Assembly (NCBI GenBank): GCA_028705955.1
Contig: JAQWCN010000001.1
Coordinates: forward strand, 5,247 to 56,491
Length of the DNA: 51,245 nucleotides
Source of the DNA: Eubacteriaceae bacterium
Lineage (GTDB): Bacteria; Bacillota; Clostridia; Eubacteriales; Eubacteriaceae
Reading direction: 5' to 3'
The translations under genes were made by a program, and so were the position numbers. Each line of letters starts with the position of its first letter. Position 1 is the stretch's first letter. This document shows positions 5,665 through 23,510 of this stretch, piece by piece. Below the pieces are notes generated by a model. The model did no database searches. It was given only the letters and a program-made list of their open reading frames with translations, and was not told the DNA's origin.

Positions 5665-7186
5665 CAGTATCGGTGTGATTGATATCGGGTCCAACAGTGT
5701 GCATCTGGTGGTGGGCCATTACCATGAAAAAGGGTATTTTACCATTCTGGACGATGTTAAAGTGAATGTGCGGCTGTGCGAAGGCCTGTCGGAAACGGGA
5801 CTGCTCAGCCCCTCCCGGATGGATCTGGGGGTGGAAACCCTGGGCCTTTTTAAACGCATGTGCGACACGTATCAGACAGAAAGCGTGATCGCTGTGGCCA
5901 CTGCGGCGGTGCGCAAAGCCGACAACGGTCCGGAATTTTGCAAGCGCGTCGCGAAAGAAGTGGGCATTGACATTTCGGTGATCCCCGGGGAAAGCGAAGC
6001 GACTTACGATTATCTGGGTGTCGTGAATACCATTGCGGTCAAGGATGCGCTGATGATGGACATCGGCGGCGGATCGGTGGAGTTTGTGCTGATTCAAGAC
6101 CGGAAGAAAAAGGACGCCATCAGTTTGCCCTTTGGCTCCATCGATCTGGCGGAACAATTTGGTCTGGCCGACACGGTTAATCCGGAGGCACTGGGGCGTT
6201 TAAAGGCCTATATGGACGGGGCTTTTTCCCAGTATCAACTGTTTAAAAAGGCCAGGGGCCTGCCGGTAATCGGCGTGGGTGGAACGATCCGGAACCTGGG
6301 ACGGATTCATCGGCGCATGGTGGACTATCCACTGGAAATTGCCCACAATTATCCCATGACAGCCCAGGAAGTCAAAGCGGTTTGTGATTTGACTGCCGGA
6401 ATGAATCTGGAAGAACGGCGCAACCTGAAAGGACTGTCCAAGGGACGTAGCGATATTTTTGTCGGGGCGAGCCAGGCGGTGCGCCGGGTGATGAAGGCGA
6501 TCGGGGCCAGTCAGCTCATCATTGCGGATGCCGGCCTGAGAGACGGGATCCTTTACGATCAGCTGGGGTATGGCGAGGGCAAACTCGTGCCCGACGTGTA
6601 CGATTATTCCCTGGCCAATGTGCTGGTGAATTACGATGTTAATATTCCCCATGCTTACCATTTGTACAAACTGTCCCTCAAAATGTTTGAGGAACTCAAA
6701 CCCCTCCACCGGATCGACGGCGACGTGGGGCGGATCATCAAAACCAGCGCGCTGCTCCACGATTCCGGAATTAAAATTCAGTACACCAATCACCACGAGC
6801 ACAGTTTTTATCTGATTCTCAATTCCGGGCTTTACGGACTGACCCATAAAGAACTGTTGATGAGTGCTTTTTCAGCGCTCAACCACCGGACGAATAAAAA
6901 GGTGAAAGTCGATGCGGCTTATGAAGCCATGCTCTCTGGAAAAGACAAAGCGGTCATCGATACCGTCAGTCTGTTTTTACAGATTGGTGAATATCTGGAC
7001 CGGAGCATGGACGGTGTGGTAGAGGATATTCGGTGTGAAATGACAAAAGACACGGTCACCATGCATGTGATCTCCCGGGAACACACGGTGTTTGCCGATA
7101 TGGTTATGCAGGAATGCGGCAAAAAGTTTAACCGGGTTCTCGGCCGGGAGCTGCGGGTCTTAAATGATGTGGTCGCAGTGGAATAA
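5651..7186 (+). CDS. ppx: Ppx/GppA-family phosphatase (exopolyphosphatase paralog 2)
   Basis: Motifs IGVIDIGSNSVHLVVG, VATAAVRKADNG and DIGGGSVEF are present, plus a C-terminal HD-like region (LLHDSG). The start overlaps the ppk1 end by 14 nt. Confidence 0.85.
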   Translation: MKSNNSIGVIDIGSNSVHLVVGHYHEKGYFTILDDVKVNVRLCEGLSETGLLSPSRMDLGVETLGLFKRMCDTYQTESVIAVATAAVRKADNGPEFCKRVAKEVGIDISVIPGESEATYDYLGVVNTIAVKDALMMDIGGGSVEFVLIQDRKKKDAISLPFGSIDLAEQFGLADTVNPEALGRLKAYMDGAFSQYQLFKKARGLPVIGVGGTIRNLGRIHRRMVDYPLEIAHNYPMTAQEVKAVCDLTAGMNLEERRNLKGLSKGRSDIFVGASQAVRRVMKAIGASQLIIADAGLRDGILYDQLGYGEGKLVPDVYDYSLANVLVNYDVNIPHAYHLYKLSLKMFEELKPLHRIDGDVGRIIKTSALLHDSGIKIQYTNHHEHSFYLILNSGLYGLTHKELLMSAFSALNHRTNKKVKVDAAYEAMLSGKDKAVIDTVSLFLQIGEYLDRSMDGVVEDIRCEMTKDTVTMHVISREHTVFADMVMQECGKKFNRVLGRELRVLNDVVAVE

Positions 7187-9711: not shown

Positions 9712-9741
9712 AAAAAAATCAGGCTTTTGCCTGATTTTTTA
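9712..9741. terminator. Bidirectional intrinsic terminator (kinase / pilT)
   Basis: AAAAAAATCAGGC-tttt-GCCTGATTTTTT hairpin that overlaps the pilT stop codon. Confidence 0.75.
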
Positions 9742-10800
9742 TTGCAATTTTTTTTCAAGCATGGCCGGGTTAACGGCGTGGCTGATTGCTGTTTCGGCAG
9801 TGATCCGGTCATGGGTCACTAAATTGTAGAGATAGGTATCCATGGAAAACATATCCGGCTGGGTGGAGGAATAAAGCAGGCCTCCAATTTGATGCGCCTT
9901 GTGATCCCGGATCATATTGCGCACGCCGGGAGTGACGGTGAGCACCTCAAAAGCAGGGATGAGCCGGGAATGGTCCACAGAAGGAATCAGCTGCTGGGAA
10001 ACCACGGCGCTTAAACACATGGAAAGCTGCACCGCAATCTGATTTTGCTGATTGGGCGGAAAGGCATCCACAACCCGGTCAATGGTGTCCGCCGCGCTGA
10101 TGGTGTGCATGGTGGATAAAATCAAATGGCCGGTTTCAGCAGCGGTCATGGCTACATTGATGGTTTCGTGATCCCGCATTTCCCCGAGTAGAATGACATC
10201 CGGGCTCTGGCGCAGGGCCGCGCGGAGCGCGGTGACGTAATCCTCGGTGTCGGTACCGATTTCCCGCTGGCTCACGATGCTTTTTTTATGATGGTGCAGG
10301 TGTTCCAACGGGTCTTCCAGTGTGATGATATGTTCGGCCCGGGTCTCGTTGATATGATCGATCATGCAGGCCATGGTTGTGGATTTCCCGCTGCCGGCCG
10401 GTCCGGTAACCAGAATCATGCCCTTGCGCAAATCGGCGAGGTCCGTGACACAGTCCGGAATGCCCATGGCTTTGGGATCGGGAAGGGAAAAAGAAATGAT
10501 CCGGATCACCGCGGCGTCGGTCCCCCGCTGTTTGTAAGTGCTGGCCCTGAAACGGGAAACGCCGGGCAGAGCGAAGGAAAAGTCGTCATCCCCATTTTTA
10601 TTAAAGGTATCGTAATCCCGGCCGCTGGCAAGACCGTAAATTCCCCGGACAAGGGATTCGGTATCCGAAGGCATCAGGGGTTTTTCGGTGATGTGAACCA
10701 GTTGACCGTTGACCTTGTACGTTAAGGGTAAACCGGTGACCAGAAAAACATCGGATGCTTTTTGAAGAGTTGCGTGGGTTAATATTTGTTTGATATCCAT
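9739..10800 (-). CDS. pilT: PilT-family type IV pilus retraction-type ATPase
   Basis: Walker A GPAGSGKST, the Asp box/Walker B region DVILLGEMRD and the His box LSTMHT are present. GVRNMIRDHKAHQI corresponds to the PilT-specific AIRNLIRE motif. The start is placed at MDIKQIL (nt 10800), which has SD AGGAG. Confidence 0.85.
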   Translation of the reverse strand: MDIKQILTHATLQKASDVFLVTGLPLTYKVNGQLVHITEKPLMPSDTESLVRGIYGLASGRDYDTFNKNGDDDFSFALPGVSRFRASTYKQRGTDAAVIRIISFSLPDPKAMGIPDCVTDLADLRKGMILVTGPAGSGKSTTMACMIDHINETRAEHIITLEDPLEHLHHHKKSIVSQREIGTDTEDYVTALRAALRQSPDVILLGEMRDHETINVAMTAAETGHLILSTMHTISAADTIDRVVDAFPPNQQNQIAVQLSMCLSAVVSQQLIPSVDHSRLIPAFEVLTVTPGVRNMIRDHKAHQIGGLLYSSTQPDMFSMDTYLYNLVTHDRITAETAISHAVNPAMLEKKLQ

Positions 10801-10828
10801 GGTTGCTCCTGTTGATAAAATCGTTGCG

Positions 10829-11302
10829 TTATTTGATGACATTGAGGGTGTCCTGTTGTTGCCAGCTTTGCGTGTTGACTACCTGCCACTGGGTTACGGT
10901 GTAGTAAGTCTCCCCGGGATTTTGGGGGAAGGTGGGCTGGACGCTGACCACAAGATTCTGATTTTCTTTGATGGCGATTTGGGTTGTCGCTTTTTCGGCA
11001 GCATTGTCCCAGGTCCAGCCCTCCGGCAGCACACCGGGAACCCCGGAAACGTAAGCAGCCGCGCTGCCGGCCCCGGGAGCCAGGGCAGCCAGGGCGCTGT
11101 CCAGACTGGCCAGGCGGCTATTGGCCTGATTAGAGGCGGCGTAATAGGCAGTGGTGGTCGCTTCGGTGGCTGTTGCCAGCTTTTGATCGGTGGTGGCGCT
11201 GACCAGGGACAAGGCGGCAAAAATGACCAGACACAGCACGGTAAAGATGACCAGCAAAAAAGCGGAGCCGGTGCCGACAAAACTAAAGCGTTGTTTTTCC
11301 AT
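10829..11302 (-). CDS. Pilus-operon membrane-anchored protein (single N-terminal TM, no recognisable family)
   Basis: The start is placed at MEKQRFSFVGTGSAFLLVIFTVLCLVIFAALSLVSA, which has SD GAAGGAA. The gene is tightly packed in the operon, 13 nt after the upstream stop. Confidence 0.55.
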   Translation of the reverse strand: MEKQRFSFVGTGSAFLLVIFTVLCLVIFAALSLVSATTDQKLATATEATTTAYYAASNQANSRLASLDSALAALAPGAGSAAAYVSGVPGVLPEGWTWDNAAEKATTQIAIKENQNLVVSVQPTFPQNPGETYYTVTQWQVVNTQSWQQQDTLNVIK

Positions 11303-11315
11303 AAACGTTCCTTCT

Positions 11316-11759
11316 TTAAAGTGTTTTGGGAATGTGGTAATCCGTATCCAGGGTGTACAATGTGCTGTCGTCTTCAAGTTTTTTCACTTCAAGAGTGACC
11401 CGGGTCAGATCATCGGCCGGGGTTTCCCGGACATCCATCCGGTAGACTCCGGCGTTTTGGGTACTGGGTTGCCAGTTGGCGTCGTAGTAAAGGTGAAAGC
11501 CGGCCTGGTCCGTGTTCACAGCGGGGTTCCCGGTGGCCAGTTGTGTGCCGATATGGGCAGGGTCGGCGGCAATGCATTCGGATACGCTTTGCACAGCGCT
11601 CACTGCGTTTTCCCTTAGAGCGGTGTCCCGGCTGATGACGTGGGCTTTGGCAAAGAGTTGAATACAGACAGCGCTGGCAATGGCAAAGAAGAGAATGGCC
11701 AGAATCAGCTCCATTAAGGTAAGGCTGGTTCGGGAGTGATGGGTGCGGGGCGCTTTCAT
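11316..11759 (-). CDS. Prepilin-like (pseudopilin) protein with N-terminal methylation-type motif
   Basis: MKAPRTHHSRTS/LTLMELILAILFFAIASAV is a class III signal-like segment with Glu at +5 but Ser instead of Gly at -1. The start overlaps the upstream stop (ATGA). Confidence 0.65.
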   Translation of the reverse strand: MKAPRTHHSRTSLTLMELILAILFFAIASAVCIQLFAKAHVISRDTALRENAVSAVQSVSECIAADPAHIGTQLATGNPAVNTDQAGFHLYYDANWQPSTQNAGVYRMDVRETPADDLTRVTLEVKKLEDDSTLYTLDTDYHIPKTL

Positions 11760-12259
11760 GGGGTCGCCTCCCCGGAGAAAGCCGGGCACACGTGGACGTA
11801 GGTTTCCCGGGTTTGGCCGGTGGTGTCGGTCATCTTCAGGCAGAGCAGACTGGGGGAAACCTGTTCCGGTTCAAACTTGGTGATCTCTGTGATTTTCTGT
11901 CCCTGGCCCGGGCTCACGGCGGTGCCGTCTTTGACAAAGAGTTCCATGAGTTCTCCCTGGGAGCTGTAGAGATAGGTGGTGGTACCGGCGCCTTCGCCTT
12001 CCCCGGTGATAACCACTGCGGGCTGGGTGCCGACCTGGCCCACAGTTACCCGGCCGTTGCTGTTGTTCTGGCGTATTTTTTGAGTGACATAGGTAATGGC
12101 AGTCCGGCTGGTAAAATGATCGTTGAGGTTGGTCACCGTGCCTTTATACACGTCGATACCGATGATAATCACGGCCAGTGCAGAGGCCGCGAAAGCGCAG
12201 AACAGAGCGATGACAAAGACGACATCCACGGTATGCCGGCGTTCTCCCCGGGGCGTCAT
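11756..12259 (-). CDS. Pilus-operon membrane-anchored protein (pseudopilin-sized, DUF4860-like by recollection)
   Basis: One N-terminal TM (VDVVFVIALFCAFAASALAVIIIGI) precedes a beta-rich domain. The gene has ATGA overlaps with both neighbours. Confidence 0.55.
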   Translation of the reverse strand: MTPRGERRHTVDVVFVIALFCAFAASALAVIIIGIDVYKGTVTNLNDHFTSRTAITYVTQKIRQNNSNGRVTVGQVGTQPAVVITGEGEGAGTTTYLYSSQGELMELFVKDGTAVSPGQGQKITEITKFEPEQVSPSLLCLKMTDTTGQTRETYVHVCPAFSGEATP

Positions 12260-12597
12260 GACGTCCCTCCCAATTTGACCACGGTGATATCGGGCATGAC
12301 ATTGGAGGCAAAGCCCTGATAATCTATAAAATATTTCTGGTGATCGTAGGTCAGACCGTAGTGATCCTCCAGATAGCTGACTGAAGACGGATACTGCCCT
12401 TCGACAGCGTAACAGTGGACCACGGCGTGGCGTACCGAGGTCTCCAACCGCTTGGCGCCTTCTTCCGAAGACGTTTTGGAGAATCCGGTGATGGCGGCGC
12501 AGAAGATCACAAAAAGGAGCAAGAGGACAACGGCGGAAAAAATAGCGCCCCGGTAAGGGGAAACACTTCTATCGCTGGCATCCATTCGGTTTTTCAT
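12256..12597 (-). CDS. Pilus-operon small membrane-anchored protein
   Basis: The start is placed at MKNRMDASDRS, which has SD AAGGAGGG. There is a single TM (AIFSAVVLLLLFVIFCAAITGF). The stop overlaps the start of the next gene. Confidence 0.55.
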   Translation of the reverse strand: MKNRMDASDRSVSPYRGAIFSAVVLLLLFVIFCAAITGFSKTSSEEGAKRLETSVRHAVVHCYAVEGQYPSSVSYLEDHYGLTYDHQKYFIDYQGFASNVMPDITVVKLGGTS

Positions 12598-12607
12598 GAG
12601 GCCCTCC

Positions 12608-13657
12608 TTATCCGATATTGGACATGATACCCAAAAGGGGAAACATGACCGACAGCAAAATGAGTCCGACAATGATTGAAATGATGGCCACGAGGGTTGG
12701 TTCCAGAATCGACAGCATATGTTCGATGGCGTCGTCCACCTCGTCGCTGTAACGGACGGCGATCCGGTTCATGGCGTCGTCCATGTTGCCGGATTTATCC
12801 CCAATGGCCAGGATCCGGTCGTAGATTCCGGAAAAAAGCTTCGCCTGGTGTAAAGCTGCGGGAAAGGATTCCCCTTCGGTCATGGCCTGCCGGCAGCAGA
12901 CAATTTTTGCTTTAAGCACCGGATGATCGGTAATGCTGTCCACCAGATCCAGACATTGATCCGGATTTAAGCCGCTGGACAGGGTCATGGACAGGCCGTT
13001 GGCAAACCGGCTCAGGGCGATTTTTTCGTTCAGGCGCCGGGTCAGGGCAAAATGGACAATAAAATGGGAAAAGTGTTTCCGGCCTTTCTCCGTTTTGCTC
13101 AGGTAAAACAGCCCGCCGGCAAGCAGCGCGAGAATGGCGATAAAGACTGCAGCGTAACGGCTCATGACCGAGCCGGCATTCAAAACAGCTCCGGCAAACC
13201 CGGTCATCTCGGTCCCCAGCATGGTAAAAACCTGATTAAAAACCGGCATCACCTGGACCATCAGCACCACGATAATCACCACCATCATGCCGATCATGAT
13301 CAGGGGGTAGGTGACCGCGCTTTTAATGCCTTTGGCGATAGACTCTTCCCGGCTGTAGTAAACCGTCAAGGAATCCAGAACATCGTCGAGCTTGCCGGAA
13401 AGTTCCCCCAGACGAACCATCTCGATGAGGTAAGAGGGAAAGACTCCGGAAGTTTTGAGGGCTTCGGAAAACGGCAGCCCCGCCATCAGCCCCTCGCTGG
13501 TGGTCTGAAGAATGGACTGGGTGTCCGGATTTTTCATATCCTCCATCATAATCATAATGCCTTCATCGGTGGAGATCCCCGCTTTAATAATCATGGCCAT
13601 CTGGCTGCAGAACGCGGCGATTTCGGTATTGTTCAGCGGTGTCAATTTTGTTTTCAT
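12608..13657 (-). CDS. GspF/PilC-family type II secretion / type IV pilus platform protein
   Basis: The protein has two T2SSF repeats (AAFCSQMAMIIKAGIS...; FANGLSMTLSSGLNPDQCL...), each followed by TM segments. SD AAGGAG lies upstream; the start is ATG 13657 or TTG 13660. Confidence 0.85.
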   Translation of the reverse strand: MKTKLTPLNNTEIAAFCSQMAMIIKAGISTDEGIMIMMEDMKNPDTQSILQTTSEGLMAGLPFSEALKTSGVFPSYLIEMVRLGELSGKLDDVLDSLTVYYSREESIAKGIKSAVTYPLIMIGMMVVIIVVLMVQVMPVFNQVFTMLGTEMTGFAGAVLNAGSVMSRYAAVFIAILALLAGGLFYLSKTEKGRKHFSHFIVHFALTRRLNEKIALSRFANGLSMTLSSGLNPDQCLDLVDSITDHPVLKAKIVCCRQAMTEGESFPAALHQAKLFSGIYDRILAIGDKSGNMDDAMNRIAVRYSDEVDDAIEHMLSILEPTLVAIISIIVGLILLSVMFPLLGIMSNIG

Positions 13658-13675
13658 CAACGAGCTCCTTTTGTT

Positions 13676-14572
13676 CTAATAGACGTATTTTGTCTGATAA
13701 TTACTGCCGTCCCCGATGTATTCCTTGACGGATTCGTTGCCGTTGTTGGCGCCCAGAGTGGGATCCATCAGGGTCCAGGCCTTGCCGTCAAACTGAATGA
13801 CGCCGTTGATCCATCCGGATTCGTCGGTATAGACAGAAATCCACGCGTGGTAGAGGGAACCGGCGTAGCCCACTTCCAGCCGGGTGGGAATATTCTGGGA
13901 GCGGAGCATGGCGGCCATCAGGGCAGTGTAGTCAAAACAAATGCCTTTGCCGGAATCCAAAATTTCGTCCACATTGGGAAGATAGTCCGAAGTGACCGTC
14001 GCGGCCTCGCTGGAATCATAGGTAATATTTTTGGTGCCATAATCGTATACGTTTTTGACCACATCCAGATCCGAATCGGCATTGGCCGCCAGATCTTTTC
14101 CCTTGGCCACCGCTTTGGAGCTGGCGTTGAAATTGACGTATTGGCTCGGGTACAGGTAAGGGCCAAAGGCGTTGGCGATGGTTACCGCTACCGTTTGACT
14201 GAAGGCGGTGGTATACTGATTGTCGTAGGCATGTTCCAGGACGGTGAGGGTATAGTCTCCGCTGTCCCCGGTTAGGGGAAAGGCAGCCCAGTCAGTCCCG
14301 AGGTTGTAGGTGTATACCGTCCCCGATGGAACGGTAATCTGAAGTTTGACTTTATCCGAGGATCCGGTGTAGTGGACCATCACGTAACCCTGATCGCTGT
14401 GGGACGCGTCGATGACGGCGGAAGCGCTCTCGTAAGTGGTGGTGCCGTCAGCGGCGGGGGTGAGCACCTGGGGGGTATTGTCCCGGGTTCCTTTTTTGCC
14501 GCATCCGCTCAAAACCAGACAGCCTGCGAGTATTCCGATAAAAAAGAGAAAGACCCATTTCTTTCGCTTCAT
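13676..14572 (-). CDS. Transglutaminase-like (Cys-His-Asp) lipoprotein, first gene of the pilus-like operon
   Basis: A lipobox is present (LVLSGC). The transglutaminase core reads GKGICFDYTALMAAMLRSQNIPTRLEVGY...YHAWISVY...LMDPT. The stop is only 18 nt upstream of the gspF-like ATG. Confidence 0.8.
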   Translation of the reverse strand: MKRKKWVFLFFIGILAGCLVLSGCGKKGTRDNTPQVLTPAADGTTTYESASAVIDASHSDQGYVMVHYTGSSDKVKLQITVPSGTVYTYNLGTDWAAFPLTGDSGDYTLTVLEHAYDNQYTTAFSQTVAVTIANAFGPYLYPSQYVNFNASSKAVAKGKDLAANADSDLDVVKNVYDYGTKNITYDSSEAATVTSDYLPNVDEILDSGKGICFDYTALMAAMLRSQNIPTRLEVGYAGSLYHAWISVYTDESGWINGVIQFDGKAWTLMDPTLGANNGNESVKEYIGDGSNYQTKYVY

Positions 14573-14660
14573 GGCGTTGTCCTTTCAAGTTGCGTTGCGC
14601 ATAAAAATGATTTAAAATTATTATACCACACAGAGCGTGATTGCTCCAAAAACTTCTGGC

Positions 14661-14694
14661 GTGTGACTTTGGTGTGACACAAAGGGGGTATACT
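14661..14694 (+). promoter_or_regulatory. Activator-type promoter: direct repeats GTGTGAC-N4-GTGTGAC, then 10 nt, then TATACT
   Basis: The repeats start at 14661 and 14672 (11-bp period). The -10 TATACT lies at 14689-14694. There is no good -35 hexamer. The same layout recurs at 19043-19076. Confidence 0.65.
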
Positions 14695-14768
14695 CAATAC
14701 TAAAAGTGGTCTGGTAGCGGGATCAAAGCCCAGACAGAAATTTTCGGAACCGGAAAAGGAGCGGATTT

Positions 14769-15440
14769 ATGAAGAAAGAAACAAAGAAGATCATGATTCC
14801 ACTAACCATTGGGATCATATTGATCGCTTTGGCAGTGACTTTCGCAGCTTTCTATACATCGACAAAAACCCAGGAGGATGTGTCAACCACCGATTTGGGG
14901 ATTGAACTGGTGCAGACCGGCGGCAGCGGAGCGGTCACACTGGATACCAGCAGCAAGTACAGCGGCGGGTTTTCCTACACCGGAATGCCGGGAAGCGACC
15001 CCATCGATGAACAGGTAGCGGTTAAAAATACAGGCAGCAAGCCGGCTTATATCCGGGTGACCATCAACCGCAGCTGGAAAAAGGACGGGACCAAGGTGTC
15101 GGATGTGGATCCTCAGGAAATCGGCATCGTGACCAACAGCGGAGACTGGTACGTCGATACCGCAAGTGATAAAAATCACGAACAGGTGATCTGTTATTAT
15201 AAATATCCCTTAAAAAGCGGGGAACAAACCGCCAACGTGATGGACAGCTTTACCATCATGAAAGATCTGGCGGGTCAAAACAGCAACGCTTACTCCGGTC
15301 TGCAAAGCGAAATTGATTTTAAGGCAGAAGGCATTCAGACCACATCGGCGAAAGACGCCATGCTGGCAGAATGGGGTGTCAACGTCACAATGGACAGCAG
15401 CGGCACGATCACAGCCATGCCGGCAGAACAACAGGATTAA
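14769..15440 (+). CDS. TasA/camelysin/BsaA-like secreted matrix protein with SipW-type signal peptide
   Basis: The signal reads MKKETKKIMIPLTIGIILIALAVTFAAFYTSTKT, similar to the xxAYFTD-type SipW signal. The core motif is MPGSDPIDEQVAVKNTGSKPAYIRVTI. SD AAGGAG lies upstream. Confidence 0.65.
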   Translation: MKKETKKIMIPLTIGIILIALAVTFAAFYTSTKTQEDVSTTDLGIELVQTGGSGAVTLDTSSKYSGGFSYTGMPGSDPIDEQVAVKNTGSKPAYIRVTINRSWKKDGTKVSDVDPQEIGIVTNSGDWYVDTASDKNHEQVICYYKYPLKSGEQTANVMDSFTIMKDLAGQNSNAYSGLQSEIDFKAEGIQTTSAKDAMLAEWGVNVTMDSSGTITAMPAEQQD

Positions 15441-15458
15441 ACAGGGAGGAAAGAAACG

Positions 15459-16177
15459 TGAAAAAAACAATGACAGCCATCCTCGTTACGCTCCTGATGA
15501 TTTTTGGGCTGAGCGGACAGGCTCTGGCTGCAGACAGTTATGTTTTTGAAGGCGGTGCCAATGCGTTTGTCACCGACGTATCCGGCTCTGCCACCGGCGG
15601 ATTTACAGGAATGGAACCTGGGGAAACCCGGGATTTGACCTTAAGTTTAACCAACGGCGACAGTAAGGATGTCAACTTTTATATGAGTGCAGAGATTTTA
15701 AAAAATCTCGCCGAACAAGGGGATCAAAATGCCGTATACACCTTTACGATCAGCAAAAACGGAACTCCCTTCTTTGAAACGGTCATCGGCGGAGGCAGCG
15801 ACAGCCAGAACATTTCCATCGGTGCGGAATATTTAAAAGAGGATAATACGATTCTGCTGGATACCATGGCTCCGGGCCAGAAGGATACCATTACCGTTAC
15901 ACTGGCTTTGGACGGGGATTCTGCAGAAAATGTGTACATGAACCAGAATGGTAAAATTCAGCTGGTGTTTAGTGCCGGGTCGCCGGTGACCAACGAACCG
16001 GGAACCGTCATCAACCGCATTGTCCGCACCATCACCGGACAAAGCAGCACCTCGCCGGATACCGGGGTTCAGGCGGGTGACATCCTGCTGCTTGTGGCAT
16101 TTGCAGCGGTGATCGCCGGAATCATTCTCGCCATAATTCTATTGAGAAAAAAACATAAGGAGGGAAAACAGTCATGA
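15459..16177 (+). CDS. Secreted surface protein with C-terminal sortase-type sorting signal (SPDTG + TM + basic tail)
   Basis: A GTG start follows SD GGGAGGAAA. The Sec signal is ...GQALA/ADSY. A TasA-like strand motif is present (MEPGETRDLTLSLTNGDSKDVNFYM). The C-terminus reads SPDTGVQAGDILLLVAFAAVIAGIILAIILLRKKHKEGKQS. Confidence 0.7.
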
Positions 16178-17094
16178 AAACCGCACAGCGTCACTTGAGT
16201 TTTGGGTGGGCCGGACTGCTTGTCCTGACCATTGCGCTTTTCTGTTTTTCAGCCGCTCCCGTCCAGGCCGCAGACAGTTATCAAATCAGCTTTAAAGGTG
16301 GATCCCACGGGACCATCAGTTATAATGAAACCAACGAAGGGGTCAGTTACGACATCGAGGTTCCTTATCAAAGCAGTCTGGACACGAGTCAGGTCCGGGT
16401 GGTGCCGGAAGACGGCTGGTACTGTACCGGCTGGAGTCCGGAAGTGGAAAGTCCGGTGACTGAAAAAGCGACCTACGTGGCCCAGTATAAACGCATCATT
16501 GACGAAGCGGTGTATCGCGTGAATTACGTGGATACCTCCGGCAATGCCCTGGCGACCCAGGCGATCCGTAAAACCAACGCGGGAGTGGATGTGACCGAAT
16601 ACGCCGTTCCGGTGGACGGATACGCCGTGGACAGTGCTTCCAAAACGGCGACAGTGGCAAAAGAAGGAACCGAAATTACCTTCACCTATCAGTCCGCCCA
16701 GGAACCCAGTGTGGTTGACCAGGTGGAAAACGTCGTGATTCCCGGGGGAACGACCATCGCCACAACCGGCGGGGTAACGGCAGGAACCACTGCTGCAGGG
16801 AATGGGGCCAATGCCGTCACCGCAGGCGGTACCGGGACAGCCGGTAATGCGGCTGCCGGCAATGCCGGAACCGACGGAGCGGCCGCGGCGGATGGCACGA
16901 CTGACGGAACAGTTAATCAGCAGGGGCAGACCACCACGGTTGACGATAATAATGTGCCTTTGGCCAATCAGCAGGTCGGGGATCAAAAACAGATGCCAAC
17001 CTGGGGCTACATTGCGATCATTGCAGGAGCAGCGCTCATTGCCGGAAGCCTGATCACGTTACTGGTGAAGCGCCGGAAGAAAAAACAGCATTAA
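16174..17094 (+). CDS. Secreted, C-terminally membrane-anchored surface protein with MucBP-like repeat and Gly/Ala/Thr-rich stalk
   Basis: The signal is ...APVQA/ADSY. A MucBP-like block is present (YRVNYVDTSGNALATQ...EITFTYQ), followed by a low-complexity stalk (TAGTTAAGNGANAVTAGGTG...). The C-terminal TM is followed by KRRKKKQH. The start overlaps the upstream stop (ATGA). Confidence 0.65.
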   Translation: MKTAQRHLSFGWAGLLVLTIALFCFSAAPVQAADSYQISFKGGSHGTISYNETNEGVSYDIEVPYQSSLDTSQVRVVPEDGWYCTGWSPEVESPVTEKATYVAQYKRIIDEAVYRVNYVDTSGNALATQAIRKTNAGVDVTEYAVPVDGYAVDSASKTATVAKEGTEITFTYQSAQEPSVVDQVENVVIPGGTTIATTGGVTAGTTAAGNGANAVTAGGTGTAGNAAAGNAGTDGAAAADGTTDGTVNQQGQTTTVDDNNVPLANQQVGDQKQMPTWGYIAIIAGAALIAGSLITLLVKRRKKKQH

Positions 17095-17117: not shown

Positions 17118-17166
17118 AAAGAAGTCTGGGAACCGCTGTCAACGGGGCCTGGACTTCTTTGTTTTT
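17118..17166 (+). terminator. Intrinsic terminator of the TasA-like operon
   Basis: AAAGAAGTCTGGG...CCTGGACTTCTTT forms a 13-bp stem with two G-U pairs, followed by GTTTTT. Confidence 0.6.
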
Positions 17167-17176
17167 CATCAAAGAC

Positions 17177-17205
17177 TTGTCAAGAAAACGCGTAAACGGT
17201 ATAAT
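17177..17205 (+). promoter_or_regulatory. SigA-type promoter of the SARP/BTAD regulator gene
   Basis: TTGTCA, a 17-nt spacer, then TATAAT. Its position means the TTG-initiated 5' part of the tracked ORF is not translated. Confidence 0.7.
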
Positions 17206-17233: not shown

Positions 17234-18493
17234 ATGGAAAAAGAAATACAGGATTTGGAATGGGAGCGGCACAATATGGAAATGAATGACAAGAAAAATA
17301 CGGGGTTGACCGTTAAAACCCTCGGTGGATTTTCCATTCAGGGAATGGGTGGCCACTTAAAGGAAGACGGGATACGCTCGGAAATGCTCATCAAATTGAT
17401 GGCTTACATTTTCTGCCACCACACTCAGGAAATGACGGTCCAGGAGCTGACCGATGTCCTCTGGACAGAAGAAGGCAGTGATAATCCGGCGGGAGCACTC
17501 AAAAATTTAATGTACCGGTTGCGGCTGCTGCTTAAAAAAACCTGGGGCCCCCATGATTTTATTTTAACCGGTCAGGGCGCCTACAGCTGGAATAAGGAAA
17601 TCCCCCTTGACATTGACGCGGAGGATTTCGACAAAGGCTGTAAACAGGCATCCCGGGAGCAGGATACAAATCAGAAAATTGAAGATTTAAAACAAGCACT
17701 GAGTTATTATCAGGGCACCTTTCTTCCCAAATTTTCCAGTGAATATTGGATCATGGCGCTCAGTACCTATTACCAGGGGACCTATTTGAGCGCGGTCAAA
17801 ACACTGGCTGATCTGCTGGGAAAAGAACAGCGCTATAAAGAAATGGCCCGGTGGTGCACAGTCGCCCTGCAGTACGAGCCGCTGGATGAGGACATCCATA
17901 CCGATTTGATCAAAGCCCTCATCGGCCAGAATAAGCTTAAAATGGCTATGGATCATTATAAAGAGACGGAAGCCCTGCTTTATGAAAATTTGGGGGTAGC
18001 CCCCTCGGATGAATTGCGGCGGACTTACGAAGCCCTTTTGAAAGAAACCAACAGTCAGCAGATGGATTTAAAAGCCATCGAGGAAGAACTGACAGAGAAT
18101 AACGAGAGCGGTGCTTTCCTGTGTGATTTTGGGGTGTTTAAAAAAACGTATAATCTCGAAATGCGCCGGGCTGCCCGCCTGGGGCTTTCCGTATTTGTCG
18201 TTTTGATTACGGTGGGGCCGGCCGGAAAGATGACGGTAGCCAGCCCAAACTATCTCGAAGTGATTAATGATGGCATGGACCGGCTGGAACGTGTTTTACT
18301 GGGGTGTTTGCGTTCCGGGGATGTCATTTCCAGATACAGTGGTGCCCAGTTTATTATTTTGCTGCCGACGTGTCAGTACGAGACCACCAAAATGGTTATT
18401 CAGCGTATCGAAGACAATTTTTACGAAACTGGGGACAAGCAGATTCCCAAGGTTAAACTGCATTACAGTCTTGACGAAATGGACGAAAAATAA
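17234..18493 (+). CDS. SARP/BTAD-family transcriptional activator fused to a degenerate GGDEF domain (RxxD I-site retained)
   Basis: The N-terminus has an OmpR-like winged helix (LTVKTLGGFSIQ...). The BTAD region reads LSYYQGTFLP...ALQYEPLDEDIHTDLIKAL...AMDHYKETEALLYENLGVAPSDELRRTYEALL. The C-terminus reads RSGDVISRYSGAQFIILLP, where an active domain has RxxD-xxx-RxGG(D/E)EF. The start is uncertain (17234 or 17276). Confidence 0.75.
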   Translation: MEKEIQDLEWERHNMEMNDKKNTGLTVKTLGGFSIQGMGGHLKEDGIRSEMLIKLMAYIFCHHTQEMTVQELTDVLWTEEGSDNPAGALKNLMYRLRLLLKKTWGPHDFILTGQGAYSWNKEIPLDIDAEDFDKGCKQASREQDTNQKIEDLKQALSYYQGTFLPKFSSEYWIMALSTYYQGTYLSAVKTLADLLGKEQRYKEMARWCTVALQYEPLDEDIHTDLIKALIGQNKLKMAMDHYKETEALLYENLGVAPSDELRRTYEALLKETNSQQMDLKAIEEELTENNESGAFLCDFGVFKKTYNLEMRRAARLGLSVFVVLITVGPAGKMTVASPNYLEVINDGMDRLERVLLGCLRSGDVISRYSGAQFIILLPTCQYETTKMVIQRIEDNFYETGDKQIPKVKLHYSLDEMDEK

Positions 18494-18524: not shown

Positions 18525-18965
18525 ATGACATTTGCAGATAATTGTATCAGAGTGTGCGTCGATCAGGCGGACGATGACCATTTTACCGGAACGCTGTACG
18601 GGGTGGCATTGCAGCAACCGATTCCCTTTTGCAACCGGATGGATTTTGTGGTTAAGGTGGACAAGGCTTTTGACCGGATCGGCAAGCCCCAGTCCGGTCA
18701 GGTGATCCGGTCCTTTACCGGAAACGGCGCCGCCGGCAGTTCTTATTGCGGCAGCCCGAAACATTATCATACGTCAGAATCCCTGGTTGATAAATCCGGC
18801 AGTGCAGGGACGTTTGGTTTAACGATGCTGACCCGACGCCGGGCTGAGTGGCAGGGACGGCTGACAGATGGACAGGGACGGCTGTTGGGGTTCTTTGAAA
18901 CGGCCATGGAATGTGTCACCCTGATCACCCGGGCCACAAACGCTAAAAAAGAAGCAGAACGTTGA
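18525..18965 (+). CDS. Hypothetical 146-aa cytoplasmic protein, co-transcribed with the SARP regulator
   Basis: An ATG follows the strong SD AGGAGGG, 32 nt after the regulator's stop. There is no TM or signal peptide and I recognise no family. The longer ORF-track version (18267..) lies out of frame inside the regulator gene. Confidence 0.55.
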   Translation: MTFADNCIRVCVDQADDDHFTGTLYGVALQQPIPFCNRMDFVVKVDKAFDRIGKPQSGQVIRSFTGNGAAGSSYCGSPKHYHTSESLVDKSGSAGTFGLTMLTRRRAEWQGRLTDGQGRLLGFFETAMECVTLITRATNAKKEAER

Positions 18966-18969
18966 CAGC

Positions 18970-19016
18970 AGCCGGATCTAAAACCTGTAACGGGGAAGGA
19001 AATCCGGCTTTTTTTA
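18970..19016 (+). terminator. Intrinsic terminator after the regulator/orphan pair
   Basis: AGCCGGAT...ATCCGGCT stem followed by TTTTTTT. Confidence 0.65.
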
Positions 19017-19042: not shown

Positions 19043-19076
19043 GTGTGACTGGGATGTGACTGCCGCCTGTTATCAT
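19043..19076 (+). promoter_or_regulatory. Activator-type promoter of the adhesin gene: GTGTGAC-N4-ATGTGAC, then 10 nt, then TATCAT
   Basis: The repeats start at 19043 and 19054 (11-bp period). The -10 TATCAT lies at 19071-19076. The geometry is identical to 14661-14694. Confidence 0.65.
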
Positions 19077-19201: not shown

Positions 19202-22200
19202 ATGAACGCAGCAATCTATCAAAAAAGAATCATTCAGATCATCGGAGGACTGATGATAGCTCTCGTGGCTATGATTGGTTTGACGAATCCTGTATGGGCC
19301 GAGGATACGGCTCCCCGCACGACGGTTCAGGAAAACGGGGCTGAGGTCGTTCGTTTTGACTACAAGAGCAGTGATGTAAATGTGCTGGTCACATTGACCA
19401 ATGCCAGCGATCTGCCGGACAACGCAGTGATGTCCGTGACACCGGTAAGCCTTGACAATCAGGAAAAGGGCAAGGTTGAAGAAAAAGCCAAGGAAGAAAG
19501 CAAAGATGTCAAAAGCACCAAGGCCTACGATATCAAATTTACGGTAGACGGCAAAGAAGTGGAACCCGGAGCGACCGTTAAAGTCGCCGTCACAACGCCC
19601 CAGGTACAGGCGGGGGAAAAAGCAGCGGTTTATCATGTGAGTGATGACAAAAATTCGGTGGACAACATGGATGCCAACACTTCGGATCAGGGTCAGGTTG
19701 ATTTTAATACCAATCATTTTTCCCGGTACGTCATTATCAATTACAGCCCCAATCCGGTTAACGTGACCATTCAGAGATATTATTACAGCGATGGTGACAG
19801 CACCAATACCGCAGACAGCAATTTACAGATGATTTATAAATCCTCCAAAACCATCAAAGCTCAGGAAGACGGCAAAACCTACCAGCTCAGCGGAGTGGAT
19901 TACAATCAGGATAACTACACGTTTGTCAAAGCCACAAAGACGACAACCGTGAATGGCGAACAGAAGACGGAGGATTTCAGCCCCAGTGATCTGGTGGTAA
20001 CAGGAGACACGACGATCTCGGTGTATTACACGAGGGCGGAAGCCACAAAAAGCGGGGATACCACCTTTTATGATTACAGCATTCAAAAAGGAATCAATCA
20101 GGCCGCCAACTACAGCAATTATACGAATAACCGGGAAGAAACAAGCGCCAAAAAAAATGCCCGGATTGCCATCCACAGTTCATGGACCGGGACCAATGTA
20201 TACAGTCCGTTAAATGGAACGGCTCAGAGCATCAACGGGTATGACGGTGGCCATGACCGGGATTTATATTCCATCAAGCAGGGCATCGTCGTCGGTACGG
20301 ACAGCAGCGGGGCCGTGGTCTACGGTAAAAACACAAGCGGCACAACCCTTTCTGATCCGGGACTCTTTACGACAGACACCAAAAGCGGTAAGACCATCAT
20401 GGATGATTACCAGCTGACCTTCAAGCAGACTGGTGACGATTATCATCTGAGCACCGTTAACTGTAAAGACACGACGCATAACACCCAGGTTCAAAACGCG
20501 GGCAGCAATTTCCTGCCACTCAATAACGACACCAGAAAATTAACAGAAAACAACAACAACAGCGGTACAGATTTCTATTTTGGCATGCGTTACGATGTCG
20601 ATTTTACCCTGGGCGATTACGTTGGTCCCCTGAACTATTCCTTCACCGGGGATGATGACTTGTGGGTTATCCTGGACGGCAAAACGGTTTTGGATATGGG
20701 CGGTATCCACGGCGCTGTTAAAGGCAGTGTCAATTTATGGACCGGTGACGCCACTTACACCGGCTATCAAAGTCATTCGACGGTTGAATCCGGAACTAAA
20801 ACCCTTTCGGGGGAAGACGGTTTGTACGATCTTTTGGGGATCACCGATCCGTCCCAGCTGACCGATGCGCAAAAGAGTCAGAAACACACCATTACCATTC
20901 TCTACATGGAACGGGGCGCCGGAGAATCCAACTGTAACATGAACTTTACCCTGCCCAATGCAAAAGTAACGGAAGTCACCCAGGTTCCAAAGGGAGACTT
21001 AACCTTTAATAAAGTGGGCAAGGTTGAAACAACCGATGCGGGAACGCCTCTAGCGGACGCGACCTTTACCATTGCCAAAAAAGATACACCGGATGCAATC
21101 ATTGCCACCGCGACATCGGACGACAGCGGGACAGTGACTTTCCCGAATCTGGAAGTGGGCGAGTACGTCGTTAAGGAAGAAACCGCTCCGACCGGTTACG
21201 CCTGTGCCAACCAGACCTTTTACGTTCAGGTCACATTGAACGAAGACGGCACAACGGCGACAGCAAAGATGTATTCGGACGAAAAATATACCCAGGAAGT
21301 GACCCAGGTGGACAACTATGAAATCAACAGCCATCTGCTTCAGCAAAAAACGGCCCACGTCACCGACTGGGATAACCGGATTTACCAAATCGATTTGTAC
21401 ACATCCCAGACCGTTCCGGTTCTGAAAGAAATTAGCGGAGCCACCATTGTGGATACCATCGATTCCCGGTTTGATGTGGTGGATAAAGACGGCAACCAGC
21501 TGGCCGACGGCACCGCAGTGGATGGCGGAACCCTTAAATACAACGAACCCGGGGAAGCCTATATCATCTGGGGAAGCCAGGTCATTCCAGGGAATAACGA
21601 TGTGACCCAGGGTTGGCACAAAACCCTTTACGTTAAAGCCAAAGCCGACTATATCGGCGGCAACAACGTGCCGACCAATGTCGAATCCAAATCCGGGATT
21701 ACGGTCAGCGGGATCACCAAAAACTTTGACAATCCAAAGGTCAATGTCAAGGCCCGGTTTGCGATGAGCAACGTGACCAAAACGGTTTTCCTCGGGGACA
21801 CCGTCGACAATCAGGATTCCCAAAATGCGATGCTGACCACGGCCGGAATCAAAGATATGATTGGCGGATCTTACCAAAGCATTACCGCAGCGGCGGATAA
21901 ACTCGCCACCCAGTGGTTTACAAAAGAAGCGATGGGCAGCGGGGATCAGACAACCGTGAATCAAATGCCGGCCAACCCGACGGAAGAAGAAACCGTCTGG
22001 TATCTCAAAGCCACCTACAATTTAGGACAGGCGACAGAAGAAAGTACAAAGAATACGACCATAAACAATAAAGGTTATATTTCCGGTGACGCGACAGCCA
22101 ATGGCGTGGACAGTTTTGTTACAGGCGCCAATGATGACCAAATGGTGCGCAACGGGGTCACGACGACGTCAGAACCCAGCGTTAAAGGAAAAGAATACGG

Positions 22201-22729
22201 AGTGTATACTGTCCATGTGGTCCGGGGACAACTGATGATTACCAAGACCATTGACAATCAGTACTCCACCATCCGCAAAATCAATGCAAATCAAACTTTT
22301 GTGTTTAAGGTCGAACGCTACGACATGGACGCAAAAGGGGAAAAAGTGGGGGATACCCCAACCGACACTTTCTACGAAACCATCAACTTTGACGCCAACG
22401 CCGGAACCACAACCAGCAGCAAACTGATTTCCAACTTGAAAGCCGGTTTTTACACCGTCACCGAAGAAACAAAGTGGTCGCCGAAATACGTGATCGATGG
22501 CAGCACACCGGTTTCCCAGAGCTACTCCATCGGCATTGTCCAATCGACAGATGACAAAGGCGTGCGTACTTTTAACGGTTTGGAAGACATGAACAAGAAT
22601 CTGAAAGCAACCAACAAGTATGGAAAAGTTGCGGAAGGCAAACATTGTACCACTACCTACATGAATAAACGGACCGACTGGAACTGGCTCTCAGATACAG
22701 CCGCGGCGGTGAATGAATTTGTAAAATAA
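19202..22729 (+). CDS. Large secreted adhesin: fibro-slime/PA14-like domain plus SpaA/Cna-B-type prealbumin-fold domains; no C-terminal anchor
   Basis: The Sec signal is ...TNPVWA/EDT. The fibro-slime/PA14 signature reads GTDFYFGMRYDVDFTL...FTGDDDLWVILDGKTVLDMGGIHG. A Cna-B/SpaA-like block reads LTFNKVGK...ATFTIAKK...GTVTFPNLEVGEYVVKEETAPTGY. The C-terminus has pilin-like beta domains (GQLMITKTI...FVFKVERYD...GFYTVTEE). SD AAAGGAG lies upstream. Confidence 0.8.
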   Translation: MNAAIYQKRIIQIIGGLMIALVAMIGLTNPVWAEDTAPRTTVQENGAEVVRFDYKSSDVNVLVTLTNASDLPDNAVMSVTPVSLDNQEKGKVEEKAKEESKDVKSTKAYDIKFTVDGKEVEPGATVKVAVTTPQVQAGEKAAVYHVSDDKNSVDNMDANTSDQGQVDFNTNHFSRYVIINYSPNPVNVTIQRYYYSDGDSTNTADSNLQMIYKSSKTIKAQEDGKTYQLSGVDYNQDNYTFVKATKTTTVNGEQKTEDFSPSDLVVTGDTTISVYYTRAEATKSGDTTFYDYSIQKGINQAANYSNYTNNREETSAKKNARIAIHSSWTGTNVYSPLNGTAQSINGYDGGHDRDLYSIKQGIVVGTDSSGAVVYGKNTSGTTLSDPGLFTTDTKSGKTIMDDYQLTFKQTGDDYHLSTVNCKDTTHNTQVQNAGSNFLPLNNDTRKLTENNNNSGTDFYFGMRYDVDFTLGDYVGPLNYSFTGDDDLWVILDGKTVLDMGGIHGAVKGSVNLWTGDATYTGYQSHSTVESGTKTLSGEDGLYDLLGITDPSQLTDAQKSQKHTITILYMERGAGESNCNMNFTLPNAKVTEVTQVPKGDLTFNKVGKVETTDAGTPLADATFTIAKKDTPDAIIATATSDDSGTVTFPNLEVGEYVVKEETAPTGYACANQTFYVQVTLNEDGTTATAKMYSDEKYTQEVTQVDNYEINSHLLQQKTAHVTDWDNRIYQIDLYTSQTVPVLKEISGATIVDTIDSRFDVVDKDGNQLADGTAVDGGTLKYNEPGEAYIIWGSQVIPGNNDVTQGWHKTLYVKAKADYIGGNNVPTNVESKSGITVSGITKNFDNPKVNVKARFAMSNVTKTVFLGDTVDNQDSQNAMLTTAGIKDMIGGSYQSITAAADKLATQWFTKEAMGSGDQTTVNQMPANPTEEETVWYLKATYNLGQATEESTKNTTINNKGYISGDATANGVDSFVTGANDDQMVRNGVTTTSEPSVKGKEYGVYTVHVVRGQLMITKTIDNQYSTIRKINANQTFVFKVERYDMDAKGEKVGDTPTDTFYETINFDANAGTTTSSKLISNLKAGFYTVTEETKWSPKYVIDGSTPVSQSYSIGIVQSTDDKGVRTFNGLEDMNKNLKATNKYGKVAEGKHCTTTYMNKRTDWNWLSDTAAAVNEFVK

Positions 22730-22747
22730 AAGCGTTTGAACAACAAG

Positions 22748-22787
22748 AGGCCAGGGAGGGACGACAGTCCAGCCCTGGCCTTTTTAA
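22748..22787 (+). terminator. Intrinsic terminator of the adhesin gene
   Basis: AGGCCAGGG...CCCTGGCCT hairpin followed by TTTTT. Confidence 0.75.
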
Positions 22788-22971: not shown

Positions 22972-23055
22972 TTATTTTTCAGCTTTTAAAGCATCCAATT
23001 CAGCCTTGAGTTCTGCGATCTGTTTTAATAATTCATCATAAGGGTTAAAGTTCAT
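22972..23055 (-). CDS. Micropeptide 1 (27 aa): MNFNPYDELLKQIAELKAELDALKAEK
   Basis: Found by manual translation because it is below the ORF-track size cutoff. SD AAAGGAGA lies 7 nt before the ATG and the stop is TAA. It is paralogous to the two ORFs upstream. Confidence 0.6.
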   Translation of the reverse strand: MNFNPYDELLKQIAELKAELDALKAEK

Positions 23056-23123
23056 GTTTATTTCTCCTTTGTTTTTATATTTTGATACGAATTAAATTCT
23101 TTTATGGAATCAGATAAGTTCAA

Positions 23124-23207
23124 TTATCTGGATGCTTTCATGGATTCAACTTCAGCTTTGAGTTCCTGAATTTGTTTTAAAATTTCATTCATTGCATTGT
23201 AGCCCAT
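23124..23207 (-). CDS. Micropeptide 2 (27 aa): MGYNAMNEILKQIQELKAEVESMKASR
   Basis: Found by manual translation. SD AAAGGAGA lies 7 nt before the ATG and the stop is TAA. It shares the xYNxxxElLkqIqELKaEl core with its neighbours. Confidence 0.6.
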   Translation of the reverse strand: MGYNAMNEILKQIQELKAEVESMKASR

Positions 23208-23284
23208 TGAGTTTTCTCCTTTCTGTTTTACTTTCATTATAAGAGTTATCCGATATCCGGATGGATTTACACGTTAAAAACGGT

Positions 23285-23365
23285 TCAGGCGTTTTTCAGT
23301 GAAGCAAGTTCAGATTTTAATTCCTGGATTTCCTGGAGCAATACTTCGTATGGATTGTAATTCAT
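23285..23365 (-). CDS. Micropeptide 3 (26 aa): MNYNPYEVLLQEIQELKSELASLKNA
   Basis: Found by manual translation. SD AAAGGAGA lies 7 nt before the ATG and the stop is TGA. It shares 15 of 26 residues with micropeptide 1, although many codons differ synonymously. Confidence 0.6.
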   Translation of the reverse strand: MNYNPYEVLLQEIQELKSELASLKNA

Positions 23366-23510
23366 AGTGCGTCTCCTTTCTTTCAATGGCGGATCCAATC
23401 GGATTCGCAATGTCTGTAGGAACAAGATAAAAACAAATGATTAAATATACAATAAATGTAATAATTTCAAGATCAGCAAGTTGTTTCATTTGTTTTCATC
23501 TATGTGTAAT

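Follow-up and report, generated by a model that had tools for sequence, protein, structure and literature searches.

Locus organization

The sequence analyzed here (the window) is a 51,245-nt stretch of an Eubacteriaceae bacterium genome (assembly GCA_028705955.1, contig JAQWCN010000001.1, positions 5,247 to 56,491), and it holds two promoters in which 11-bp-phased direct repeats of the heptamer RTGTGAC stand where a -35 element would be expected. The first (site 1, 14661-14694) precedes an operon of secreted and surface proteins, the second (site 2, 19043-19076) precedes the gene of a large adhesin, and between the two lies the gene of a predicted regulator in which a SARP domain is joined to a degenerate GGDEF domain. 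The features of the region are as follows.

14661..14667, + strand: upstream heptamer of site 1, GTGTGAC (predicted at -40 to -34 if the -10 element lies at -12 to -7)
14672..14678, + strand: downstream heptamer of site 1, GTGTGAC (predicted at -29 to -23)
14689..14694, + strand: -10 element of site 1, TATACT (start predicted, by inference, near 14701)
14769..15440, + strand: BsaA/TasA-like secreted protein, the first gene behind site 1
15458..16177, + strand: second secreted protein; its C-terminal SPDTG motif, together with a hydrophobic stretch and basic tail, resembles a sortase anchor (TIGR01167 LPXTG, E=0.008; syntenic in relatives)
16174..17094, + strand: MucBP-like surface protein with a C-terminal membrane anchor (MucBP, E=1.7e-4; synteny)
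17120..17158, + strand: terminator-like hairpin, then UUUGUUUUU (-23.2 kcal/mol, z=-3.1), closing unit 1
17177..17205, + strand: near-consensus sigma-A promoter of the regulator gene, TTGTCA-17-TATAAT (11 of 12 matches; no heptamer box)
17234..18493, + strand: regulator, with an OmpR-type winged helix-turn-helix (wHTH) and BTAD (together the SARP domain) and a degenerate GGDEF domain (SGAQF)
18525..18965, + strand: conserved 146-aa protein, taken as co-transcribed with the regulator
18970..19009, + strand: terminator-like hairpin with U7 (-16.7 kcal/mol), closing the regulator unit just 5' of site 2
19043..19049, + strand: upstream heptamer of site 2, GTGTGAC (whole site 32.3 bits)
19054..19060, + strand: downstream heptamer of site 2, ATGTGAC (heptamer base 1 is variable across the family)
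19068..19076, + strand: extended -10 element of site 2, TGtTATCAT (hexamer begins 10 bp past the heptamer)
19202..22729, + strand: 1175-aa secreted adhesin with a fibro-slime domain and a SpaA/prealbumin-like fold, behind site 2
22745..22784, + strand: terminator hairpin past the adhesin gene (-31.1 kcal/mol, z=-6.0)

The hairpin and U-run structures delimit three units, and each site therefore heads a unit of its own. The pair of phased repeats, referred to below as the box, heads both structural units in the window, and the regulator unit has none.

Phased repeats in place of the -35 element

The initial annotation had described site 1 as two GTGTGAC heptamers one helical turn apart, followed by a good -10 element with no usable -35, and had claimed a like layout before the adhesin gene. 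Direct reading of the sequence confirmed the heptamer layout: GTGTGAC (14661-14667) is followed by tttg, a second GTGTGAC (14672-14678), a 10-bp spacer (acaaaggggg) and TATACT (14689-14694). The second site was found as claimed, in the RTGTGAC form, and reads GTGTGAC (19043-19049), tggg, ATGTGAC (19054-19060), tgccgcctgt (10 bp) and TATCAT (19071-19076). The two heptamers begin 11 bp apart at both window sites, and 10 bp separate the second one from the -10 hexamer. Site 2 has an extended -10 (TGt before the hexamer), and site 1 has neither a TG extension nor a -35. The claimed lack of a usable -35 was upheld at both, with hexamers located 16-18 bp 5' of the -10 matching TTGACA at 0-1 of 6 positions for site 1 and 0-3 of 6 for site 2. 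A near-palindrome, CTTTGgTGTgACACAAAG, surrounds the second heptamer of site 1 and was set aside as incidental, being absent from site 2 and from other loci.

The annotation had further raised the concern that such a motif might be common at random positions, and this was checked on the 51-kb window. The exact pattern GTGTGAC-N4-RTGTGAC occurs in two places only, sites 1 and 2. With up to two mismatches allowed, three matches were found as compared to 0.34 expected, the third (at 42457) being intragenic and without a -10. The lone TGTGAC hexamer is not enriched (20 found versus 18 expected), and the signal is therefore the phased pair. A weight matrix comprising the heptamers, spacer and -10, and trained only on sites from other genomes, scored 19043 at 32.3 bits and 14661 at 31.6 bits; the next best position in the window reached 6.3 bits, and 20 shuffled versions of the window gave at most 13.7. 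The phased-repeat sites are real, and lie far beyond what chance would produce.

Conservation of the box across regulator loci

Homologs of the window regulator, 37-58% identical to it, were used to gather 78 genome loci, totaling 940 kb, from Eubacterium barkeri, E. aggregans, E. callanderi, E. limosum, Lactonifactor, Blautia, Robinsoniella, Roseburia, Agathobacter, Acetatifactor, Clostridium paraputrificum, Longicatena, and others. GTGTGAC-N4-GTGTGAC with at most two mismatches occurs 133 times in these 940 kb, compared with ~6 expected for uniform composition, and 132 of the 133 pairs lie on the regulator's strand. At least one site is present in 67 of the 78 loci, and two more loci (L030 and L036) have sites with three mismatches. 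The -10 element was not part of the repeat-pair search, and TAnnnT was found exactly 10 bp past the second heptamer at 127 of the 133 sites, with the consensus TATAAT. Exact TGTGAC pairs number 102 at N5 spacing, corresponding to 11-bp phasing, and 0-3 at any other spacing from 0 to 20, with no inverted or everted TGTGAC pairs anywhere in the 940 kb. Information content reaches ~2 bits in TGTGAC and in TAtAnT, drops to 0.8 and 0.55 bits at the base following each hexamer, and is <0.5 bits in the linker and in the 10-bp spacer. As an independent control, 39 upstream regions of BsaA-like orthologs were chosen by protein homology alone; TGTGAC proved to be the most widely shared 6-mer (35/39), and 33 of them have the phased pair. 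Co-evolution of regulator and repeat was also considered. Diverged heptamers were sought in the 11 loci that lack a site at up to two mismatches, and apart from L030 and L036 these held chance-level repeats only, so no covariation argument is possible.

Gene order is likewise shared. The syntenic arrangement consists of a site, genes for the BsaA-like protein, the second secreted protein, the MucBP-like protein, the regulator and a ~144-aa protein, then a second site and the adhesin gene (followed by a BsaA-like gene and a SipW-type signal peptidase), and finally a third site preceding a SipW-dependent protein or SipW. In most loci it is an adhesin ortholog that comes after the second site. 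Blautia-type loci have a site ~0.5 kb upstream of the regulator gene, a position that points to autoregulation; most other loci have the regulator fourth in line after the first site. In the Blautia-type loci L012, L014, L015, L017, L019, L031 and L056 (~5500-5830), GTATGAC-N4-GTGTGAC is followed by an open reading frame (ORF) of 70-72 aa and then by the regulator. This leader ORF has no family match, and the arrangement of a small leader gene behind the box suggests positive autoregulation. L022 and L027 also have a box upstream of the regulator, with no 70-72-aa ORF listed.

A homolog of the 146-aa protein stands beside the regulator in 60 of the 78 loci, mostly downstream, and upstream in Blautia-type loci. 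Its invariant residues include C11, G53-x-P55-Q56, R62, R104 and Q110-G111, with W109 nearly so. In Pfam, NCBIfam and PDB the protein has no counterpart, also when Pfam and PDB are searched by profile, and a word-indexed homology search returned only the protein itself. It may be a partner of the regulator.

A SARP-type regulator with a degenerate GGDEF domain

The gene between both sites had been called SARP-type in the initial annotation, an assignment borne out by a BTAD match (PF03704, E=4e-20, residues 130-269, full model covered) and by best structural matches to EmbR and AfsR. BTAD is present in all 28 family members aligned, and the OmpR-type wHTH (PF00486) is matched by 27 of the 28. 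BTAD comes after an N-terminal wHTH, and none of the 28 members has a Response_reg match that would indicate a receiver domain. The best solved structure found by the family profile is the SARP domain of AfsR (8hvr, E=2.7e-8, AfsR residues 71-284, covering wHTH and BTAD); EmbR was found too. An AlphaFold2 model of the window regulator (pLDDT 84.6) gave EmbR as its top Foldseek match (E=3.6e-10) and aligned with AfsR (8k60/8hvr) at template modelling scores of 0.72-0.74 over 255-260 columns. The recognition helix, GALKNLMYRLR, is invariant in the 28-member alignment. AfsR makes base contacts via T88 and R92 (PMC10936776), and these residues align with N91 and R95, both of which are invariant in the regulator family. 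An invariant recognition helix fits the constancy of the motif, although the regulators are only 37-61% identical. The family is large, with 402 homologs at E<=1e-10 in a large protein database (Eubacterium, Blautia, Lachnospiraceae, Ruminococcus, Anaerorhabdus) and 1,620 representatives of 50%-identity clusters at E<=1e-30 in an exhaustive profile search.

The C-terminal domain (~residues 290-419) is a GGDEF domain that, judged from its motifs, is catalytically degenerate. The GGDEF model (PF00990) gave a partial match at E=6.5e-6 and was matched by 27 of the 28 members, and for the C-terminus of the modelled regulator Foldseek returned GGDEF domains at root-mean-square deviations of 2.4-3.9 Å. 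SGAQF aligns with the GGEEF/GGDEF motifs of 4wxw and 4urg (SadC, TM1788), and the upstream motifs of active cyclases (D-x-D / N-D) are missing. The RSGD of RSGD-VISRY-SGAQF, five residues before the GGDEF position, aligns with the RxxD inhibitory site (I-site) of SadC and TM1788. R360, D363 and R391 are invariant in the 28 sequences. The I-site residues of PleD are R359, D362 and R390 (PMC7288161), and the D363-R391 spacing of 28 residues equals that of PleD D362-R390, the equivalence to R390 coming from this spacing and not from a direct alignment with PleD. Because the catalytic motifs are lost while the I-site residues are kept, cyclic di-GMP (c-di-GMP) is, by inference, the likeliest ligand of the domain. 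The regulator may thus join a SARP domain to a c-di-GMP receptor.

Proposed mechanism

The initial annotation had linked the phased heptamers, as a replacement for the -35, to binding by the SARP-type regulator encoded between the sites, and each prediction of this idea at sequence level was borne out. We consider it probable, at roughly 78%, that the adjacent SARP-GGDEF protein activates both promoters by way of the box, which would be its operator. That this protein binds the sites is concluded from the linkage of the box to its gene and from its fold, and activation, the transcription start and the ligand are likewise predictions. Both sites would be activator-dependent sigma-A promoters with a good -10 and with the -35 replaced by a 22-bp box, the latter consisting of two 11-bp direct-repeat units that would each comprise ~8 conserved positions (nTGTGACY) and 3 free bases. 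A head-to-tail (side-by-side) dimer of the 17234-18493 regulator would read this box, with the OmpR-type winged helices each inserted into one major groove, on a common face of the DNA, and the downstream protomer ending 10 bp from the -10. From there the BTAD and DNA-binding domains could contact RNA polymerase at sigma region 4, the beta flap and the alpha subunit's C-terminal domain (alpha-CTD), and these contacts would stand in for the one absent at -35, in the way that structures have shown for AfsR. In the window the regulator gene carries a constitutive-looking promoter of its own, and control is therefore probably post-translational, via the degenerate GGDEF domain. The predicted output is the coordinated production of BsaA/TasA-like matrix or fibre proteins, the sortase-anchor-like protein, the MucBP-like protein and the large adhesin, and in relatives also of SipW.

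A more specific version, in which the family senses c-di-GMP via the I-site of the dead GGDEF domain and only the ligand-bound form dimerizes on nTGTGACY-N3-nTGTGAC and recruits polymerase, is possible but doubtful. The 146-aa partner may then serve as a co-factor or an antagonist. If this version is true, the regulator would be the first c-di-GMP-gated SARP, in a large unstudied Clostridial regulator family, and second-messenger level would be wired directly to the production of adhesins and SipW/BsaA-type fibres in Lachnospiraceae and Eubacteriaceae that are abundant in gut and rumen.

Counter-evidence and alternative readings

Several observations weigh against activation by the adjacent regulator. 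The 78 loci were collected via the regulator, which makes the linkage evidence one-directional by design, and 9 of them have no site. The window regulator itself gives no match to the Pfam wHTH model at E<=0.01, although members that do match PF00486 align with it throughout. A TG extended -10 is present at approximately 40% of the related sites, so that these promoters may have some basal, activator-independent activity.

The reverse direction was examined in metagenome contigs, which were scanned for exact GTGTGAC-N4-GTGTGAC-N10-TATAAT and yielded at least 120 loci. Among the 120 matches listed, to which the following figures refer, only 32 show the BsaA-like/regulator cluster in the available flanks, and these represent 8 distinct promoter sequences. 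In every locus with BsaA-like genes and at least 4 kb downstream, the regulator is present. The other 88 loci, which also count against the proposal, represent 16 distinct promoter sequences located before other genes or a gene-less leader, with no regulator visible within ~5-12 kb. They are dominated by four families, which are the same loci re-sampled in many human-gut metagenomes. In the five loci that were examined (L103, L195, L098, L122 and L131), the box precedes genes for secreted proteins or lipoproteins, and in one family it is followed by ~680 nt without an ORF of at least 100 aa and then by a flotillin-like gene. Either the regulon is wider than the cluster or another factor uses the box, and a wider regulon of surface proteins would be the simplest reading of the non-cluster boxes.

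Two of the metagenome loci, L089 (7850-8200, - strand) and L170, have the box and -10 followed by a conserved leader of ~230-300 nt without a convincing ORF, and then by a tRNA-Glu(CTC) gene with its own promoter. The two stand for two diverged sequence families in which this arrangement is conserved.

The alternative that survives best, though we consider it improbable, is that a different OmpR/PhoB-type protein, such as a two-component response regulator encoded elsewhere, reads the box, and that the SARP-like gene is merely a member of the regulon. Direct repeats of 11 bp located 10 bp from a -10 are generic for OmpR/PhoB-type winged helices, as in the pho box (PMC1906773), and the many metagenome promoters whose available flanks lack a regulator gene would be expected under this alternative. 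Against this, the SARP-GGDEF gene encodes the only DNA-binding protein found consistently in motif-bearing loci, its invariant recognition helix matches the invariant TGTGAC core, and it is carried by all of the listed metagenome loci that have BsaA-like genes and sufficient downstream sequence (at least 4 kb). The box that precedes the regulator gene itself in Blautia-type loci could mark the regulator as a mere target, but is explained equally by autoregulation.

That the regulator binds the box as a repressor, occluding the -35/spacer region of extended -10 promoters, has in our estimate a quite low probability. Extended -10 elements, present at site 2 as well as at the ~40% of related sites, can work without a -35, and -40 to -19 is usually a repressor-occupied position, as remarked in PMC11301090. 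However, site 1 lacks both a -35 and a TG extension and should by itself be very weak, and the BTAD/SARP-domain proteins studied so far are activators at exactly the position in question (PMC10936776). Moreover, the fixed 10 bp in 127 of 133 sites is needed by an activator that contacts polymerase, and not by occlusion.

An ordinary promoter, a CRP/FNR-type site, an alternative sigma promoter and chance are together hardly credible. A consensus scan does list GTGACA (14674), a 16-bp spacer and AATACT (14696-14701) at site 1 with 9 of 12 matches, but site 2 has no equivalent -10 at 16-18 bp and the upstream heptamer, which a single -35 would not need, is as well conserved as the downstream one; this candidate was rejected on the relatives' conserved -10 at +10 (127/133), and few of the related sites also have TAnnnT at +15 or +16. 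TGTGA is a CRP half-site and is contained in the repeat of the box, but no inverted TGTGAC..GTCACA occurs in the 940 kb; the -10 matches the sigma-A consensus TATAAT, which speaks against an alternative sigma factor, and chance is excluded by the window match statistics, the 133 related sites and the weight-matrix scores.

Relation to known systems

The closest parallel to the proposed activation by the SARP-GGDEF protein is found in AfsR and the small SARPs (ActII-ORF4, DnrI, RedD), which also combine a wHTH with BTAD and act at 11-bp repeats (~8 conserved and 3 free positions) over a missing or poor -35. The afs box consists of two 11-bp repeats at -40 to -19 (PMC10936776, PMC11301090), and each SARP protomer of AfsR contacts the first 8 bp of an 11-bp repeat (PMC10936776), a pattern that the information content of the related sites matches. 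The AfsR side-by-side dimer replaces the sigma region 4/-35 contact and touches the beta flap, the beta' zinc-binding domain and alpha-CTD (PMC10936776, PMC11301090). With the -10 placed at -12 to -7, the repeats of site 1 fall at -40 to -30 and -29 to -19, and its box spans the same positions as the afs box. The SARP-like target geometry put forward in the initial annotation thus stands as to the 11-bp phasing and the position; it departs in the distance to the -10, which is 10 bp here and 8 bp from the 3' repeat in the SARP literature (PMC10936776), a difference due to the way in which the limits of the repeat are drawn. For the E. coli pho box the quoted position is likewise 10 bp upstream of the -10 (PMC1906773).

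Unlike AfsR and the small SARPs, the present system is hosted by a Firmicute (Eubacteriaceae/Lachnospiraceae) and not an actinomycete, its repeat is nTGTGACY rather than TCGAGC-like, its -10 is near consensus, and its predicted regulon consists of surface and matrix proteins instead of antibiotics. The C-terminal module also differs, being a degenerate GGDEF domain here and NOD plus TPR, or nothing, in those proteins. The name SARP implies an actinomycete origin and a role in secondary metabolism, and in that sense the regulator falls outside of it, as the homologs are in Firmicutes and the targets are surface proteins.

In promoter layout the sites also resemble the pho box, with two 11-bp-phased direct repeats 10 bp 5' of a TAnnnT -10 in place of a -35 (PMC1906773), and by analogy with PhoB the winged helices would bind in tandem, head to tail. 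The regulator differs from PhoB in its BTAD and GGDEF-like domains, and the repeat sequence is different. EmbR of M. tuberculosis sets a precedent in joining a SARP domain to a signal-receiving domain at the C-terminus, although the sensor is GGDEF-like here and FHA in EmbR, and organism and targets differ. The GGDEF-like domain itself is comparable to degenerate-GGDEF receptors (PelD, and the I-site of PleD/WspR) in that GG(D/E)EF is lost and RxxD and the downstream Arg are kept at the PleD spacing (PMC7288161). PelD also controls a biofilm matrix component, the Pel exopolysaccharide. Unlike in PelD and PleD, the GGDEF-like domain here is fused to a putative DNA-binding activator, and its ligand binding is predicted.

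As to the genes controlled, BsaA/TasA-type targets, with SipW in related loci, recall sipW-bsaA of C. perfringens and tapA-sipW-tasA of B. subtilis. The B. subtilis operon is under other regulators, of the Spo0A/AbrB/SinR type, and is not known to be under a SARP-type protein with phased TGTGAC repeats. C. perfringens sipW-bsaA is likewise under other regulators (PMC7395162) and is not known to be under a SARP with such repeats. BsaA secretion in C. perfringens, reported to be T4P-associated (PMC11580942), offers a further likeness, in that a type II secretion/type IV pilus (T2SS/T4P)-like cluster adjoins the BsaA-like operon here. GSU1771 of Geobacter sulfurreducens is a non-actinomycete member of the SARP family that is concerned with biofilm and surface structures (PMC10599522). 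Compared by description only, it has a receiver domain where the present regulator has a GGDEF-like domain, and it is reported mainly as a negative regulator.

Full-text literature searches returned nothing on a regulator with BTAD and GGDEF or on the combination of SARP, c-di-GMP and degenerate GGDEF, and, for the present system, nothing on SARP with TasA/SipW, SARP in Lachnospiraceae and related genera, or SipW with Lachnospiraceae. The mechanism class is therefore familiar, and the regulator architecture, motif, host clade and regulon are undescribed as far as these searches show. In the literature consulted, SARP-type activation is described in actinomycetes and mostly as an antibiotic-cluster switch, and the same promoter logic, with a phased-repeat box for the -35, would now extend to gut and rumen Clostridia. 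There it combines a sharply defined motif with a large uncharacterized regulator family and a coherent predicted regulon of surface fibres and adhesins, and a plausible second-messenger input is indicated. The motif could serve as a ready regulon predictor for colonization and aggregation genes in the genetically difficult Blautia, Roseburia, Eubacterium and Robinsoniella, and the site as a compact 34 bp activator-dependent promoter part for genetic tools in gut and rumen Clostridia.

Other features of the window

The label TasA-like, given in the initial annotation to the product of the first gene behind site 1, is weakly supported for the window protein itself, which matches TIGR04090 (BsaA) at E=1.5e-4 and 21.6 bits, below the model cutoff of 60. 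The label fares better among its orthologs, 11 of 19 of which match TIGR04090 (best E=1e-10, all under the model cutoff), and 2 of the 19 match a SipW-signal model. A PDB profile search with the BsaA-like protein gave no TasA match. A tblastn search of the 51-kb window found neither a SipW-type peptidase nor extra BsaA-like genes after the adhesin, unlike in most related loci, and if the BsaA-like proteins need SipW, it must therefore be encoded elsewhere in the genome. An explanation of the promoter regions by a riboswitch or structured leader was dropped, as an Rfam scan of the whole window found no RNA family and the folds of the two 5' leaders were insignificant (z=-0.8 and -0.7).

Divergent from site 1 lies an operon (9739-14572, - strand) that encodes a transglutaminase-like lipoprotein, T2SSF, DUF4860, several small pseudopilin-like ORFs and a T2SSE ATPase. 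A T2SS/T4P-like cluster with a transglutaminase-like lipoprotein is divergent from the first site in 24 of the 78 loci, as it is in the window. The divergent operon is probably transcribed from TGgTATAAT, the reverse complement of 14620-14628 (- strand), which lies ~35 bp away from the upstream heptamer. Directly past the adhesin terminator, at 22975-23370 on the - strand, are three tandem paralogous ORFs of ~27 aa (e.g. MNFNPYDELLKQIAELKAELDALKAEK), each apparently with a ribosome-binding site.

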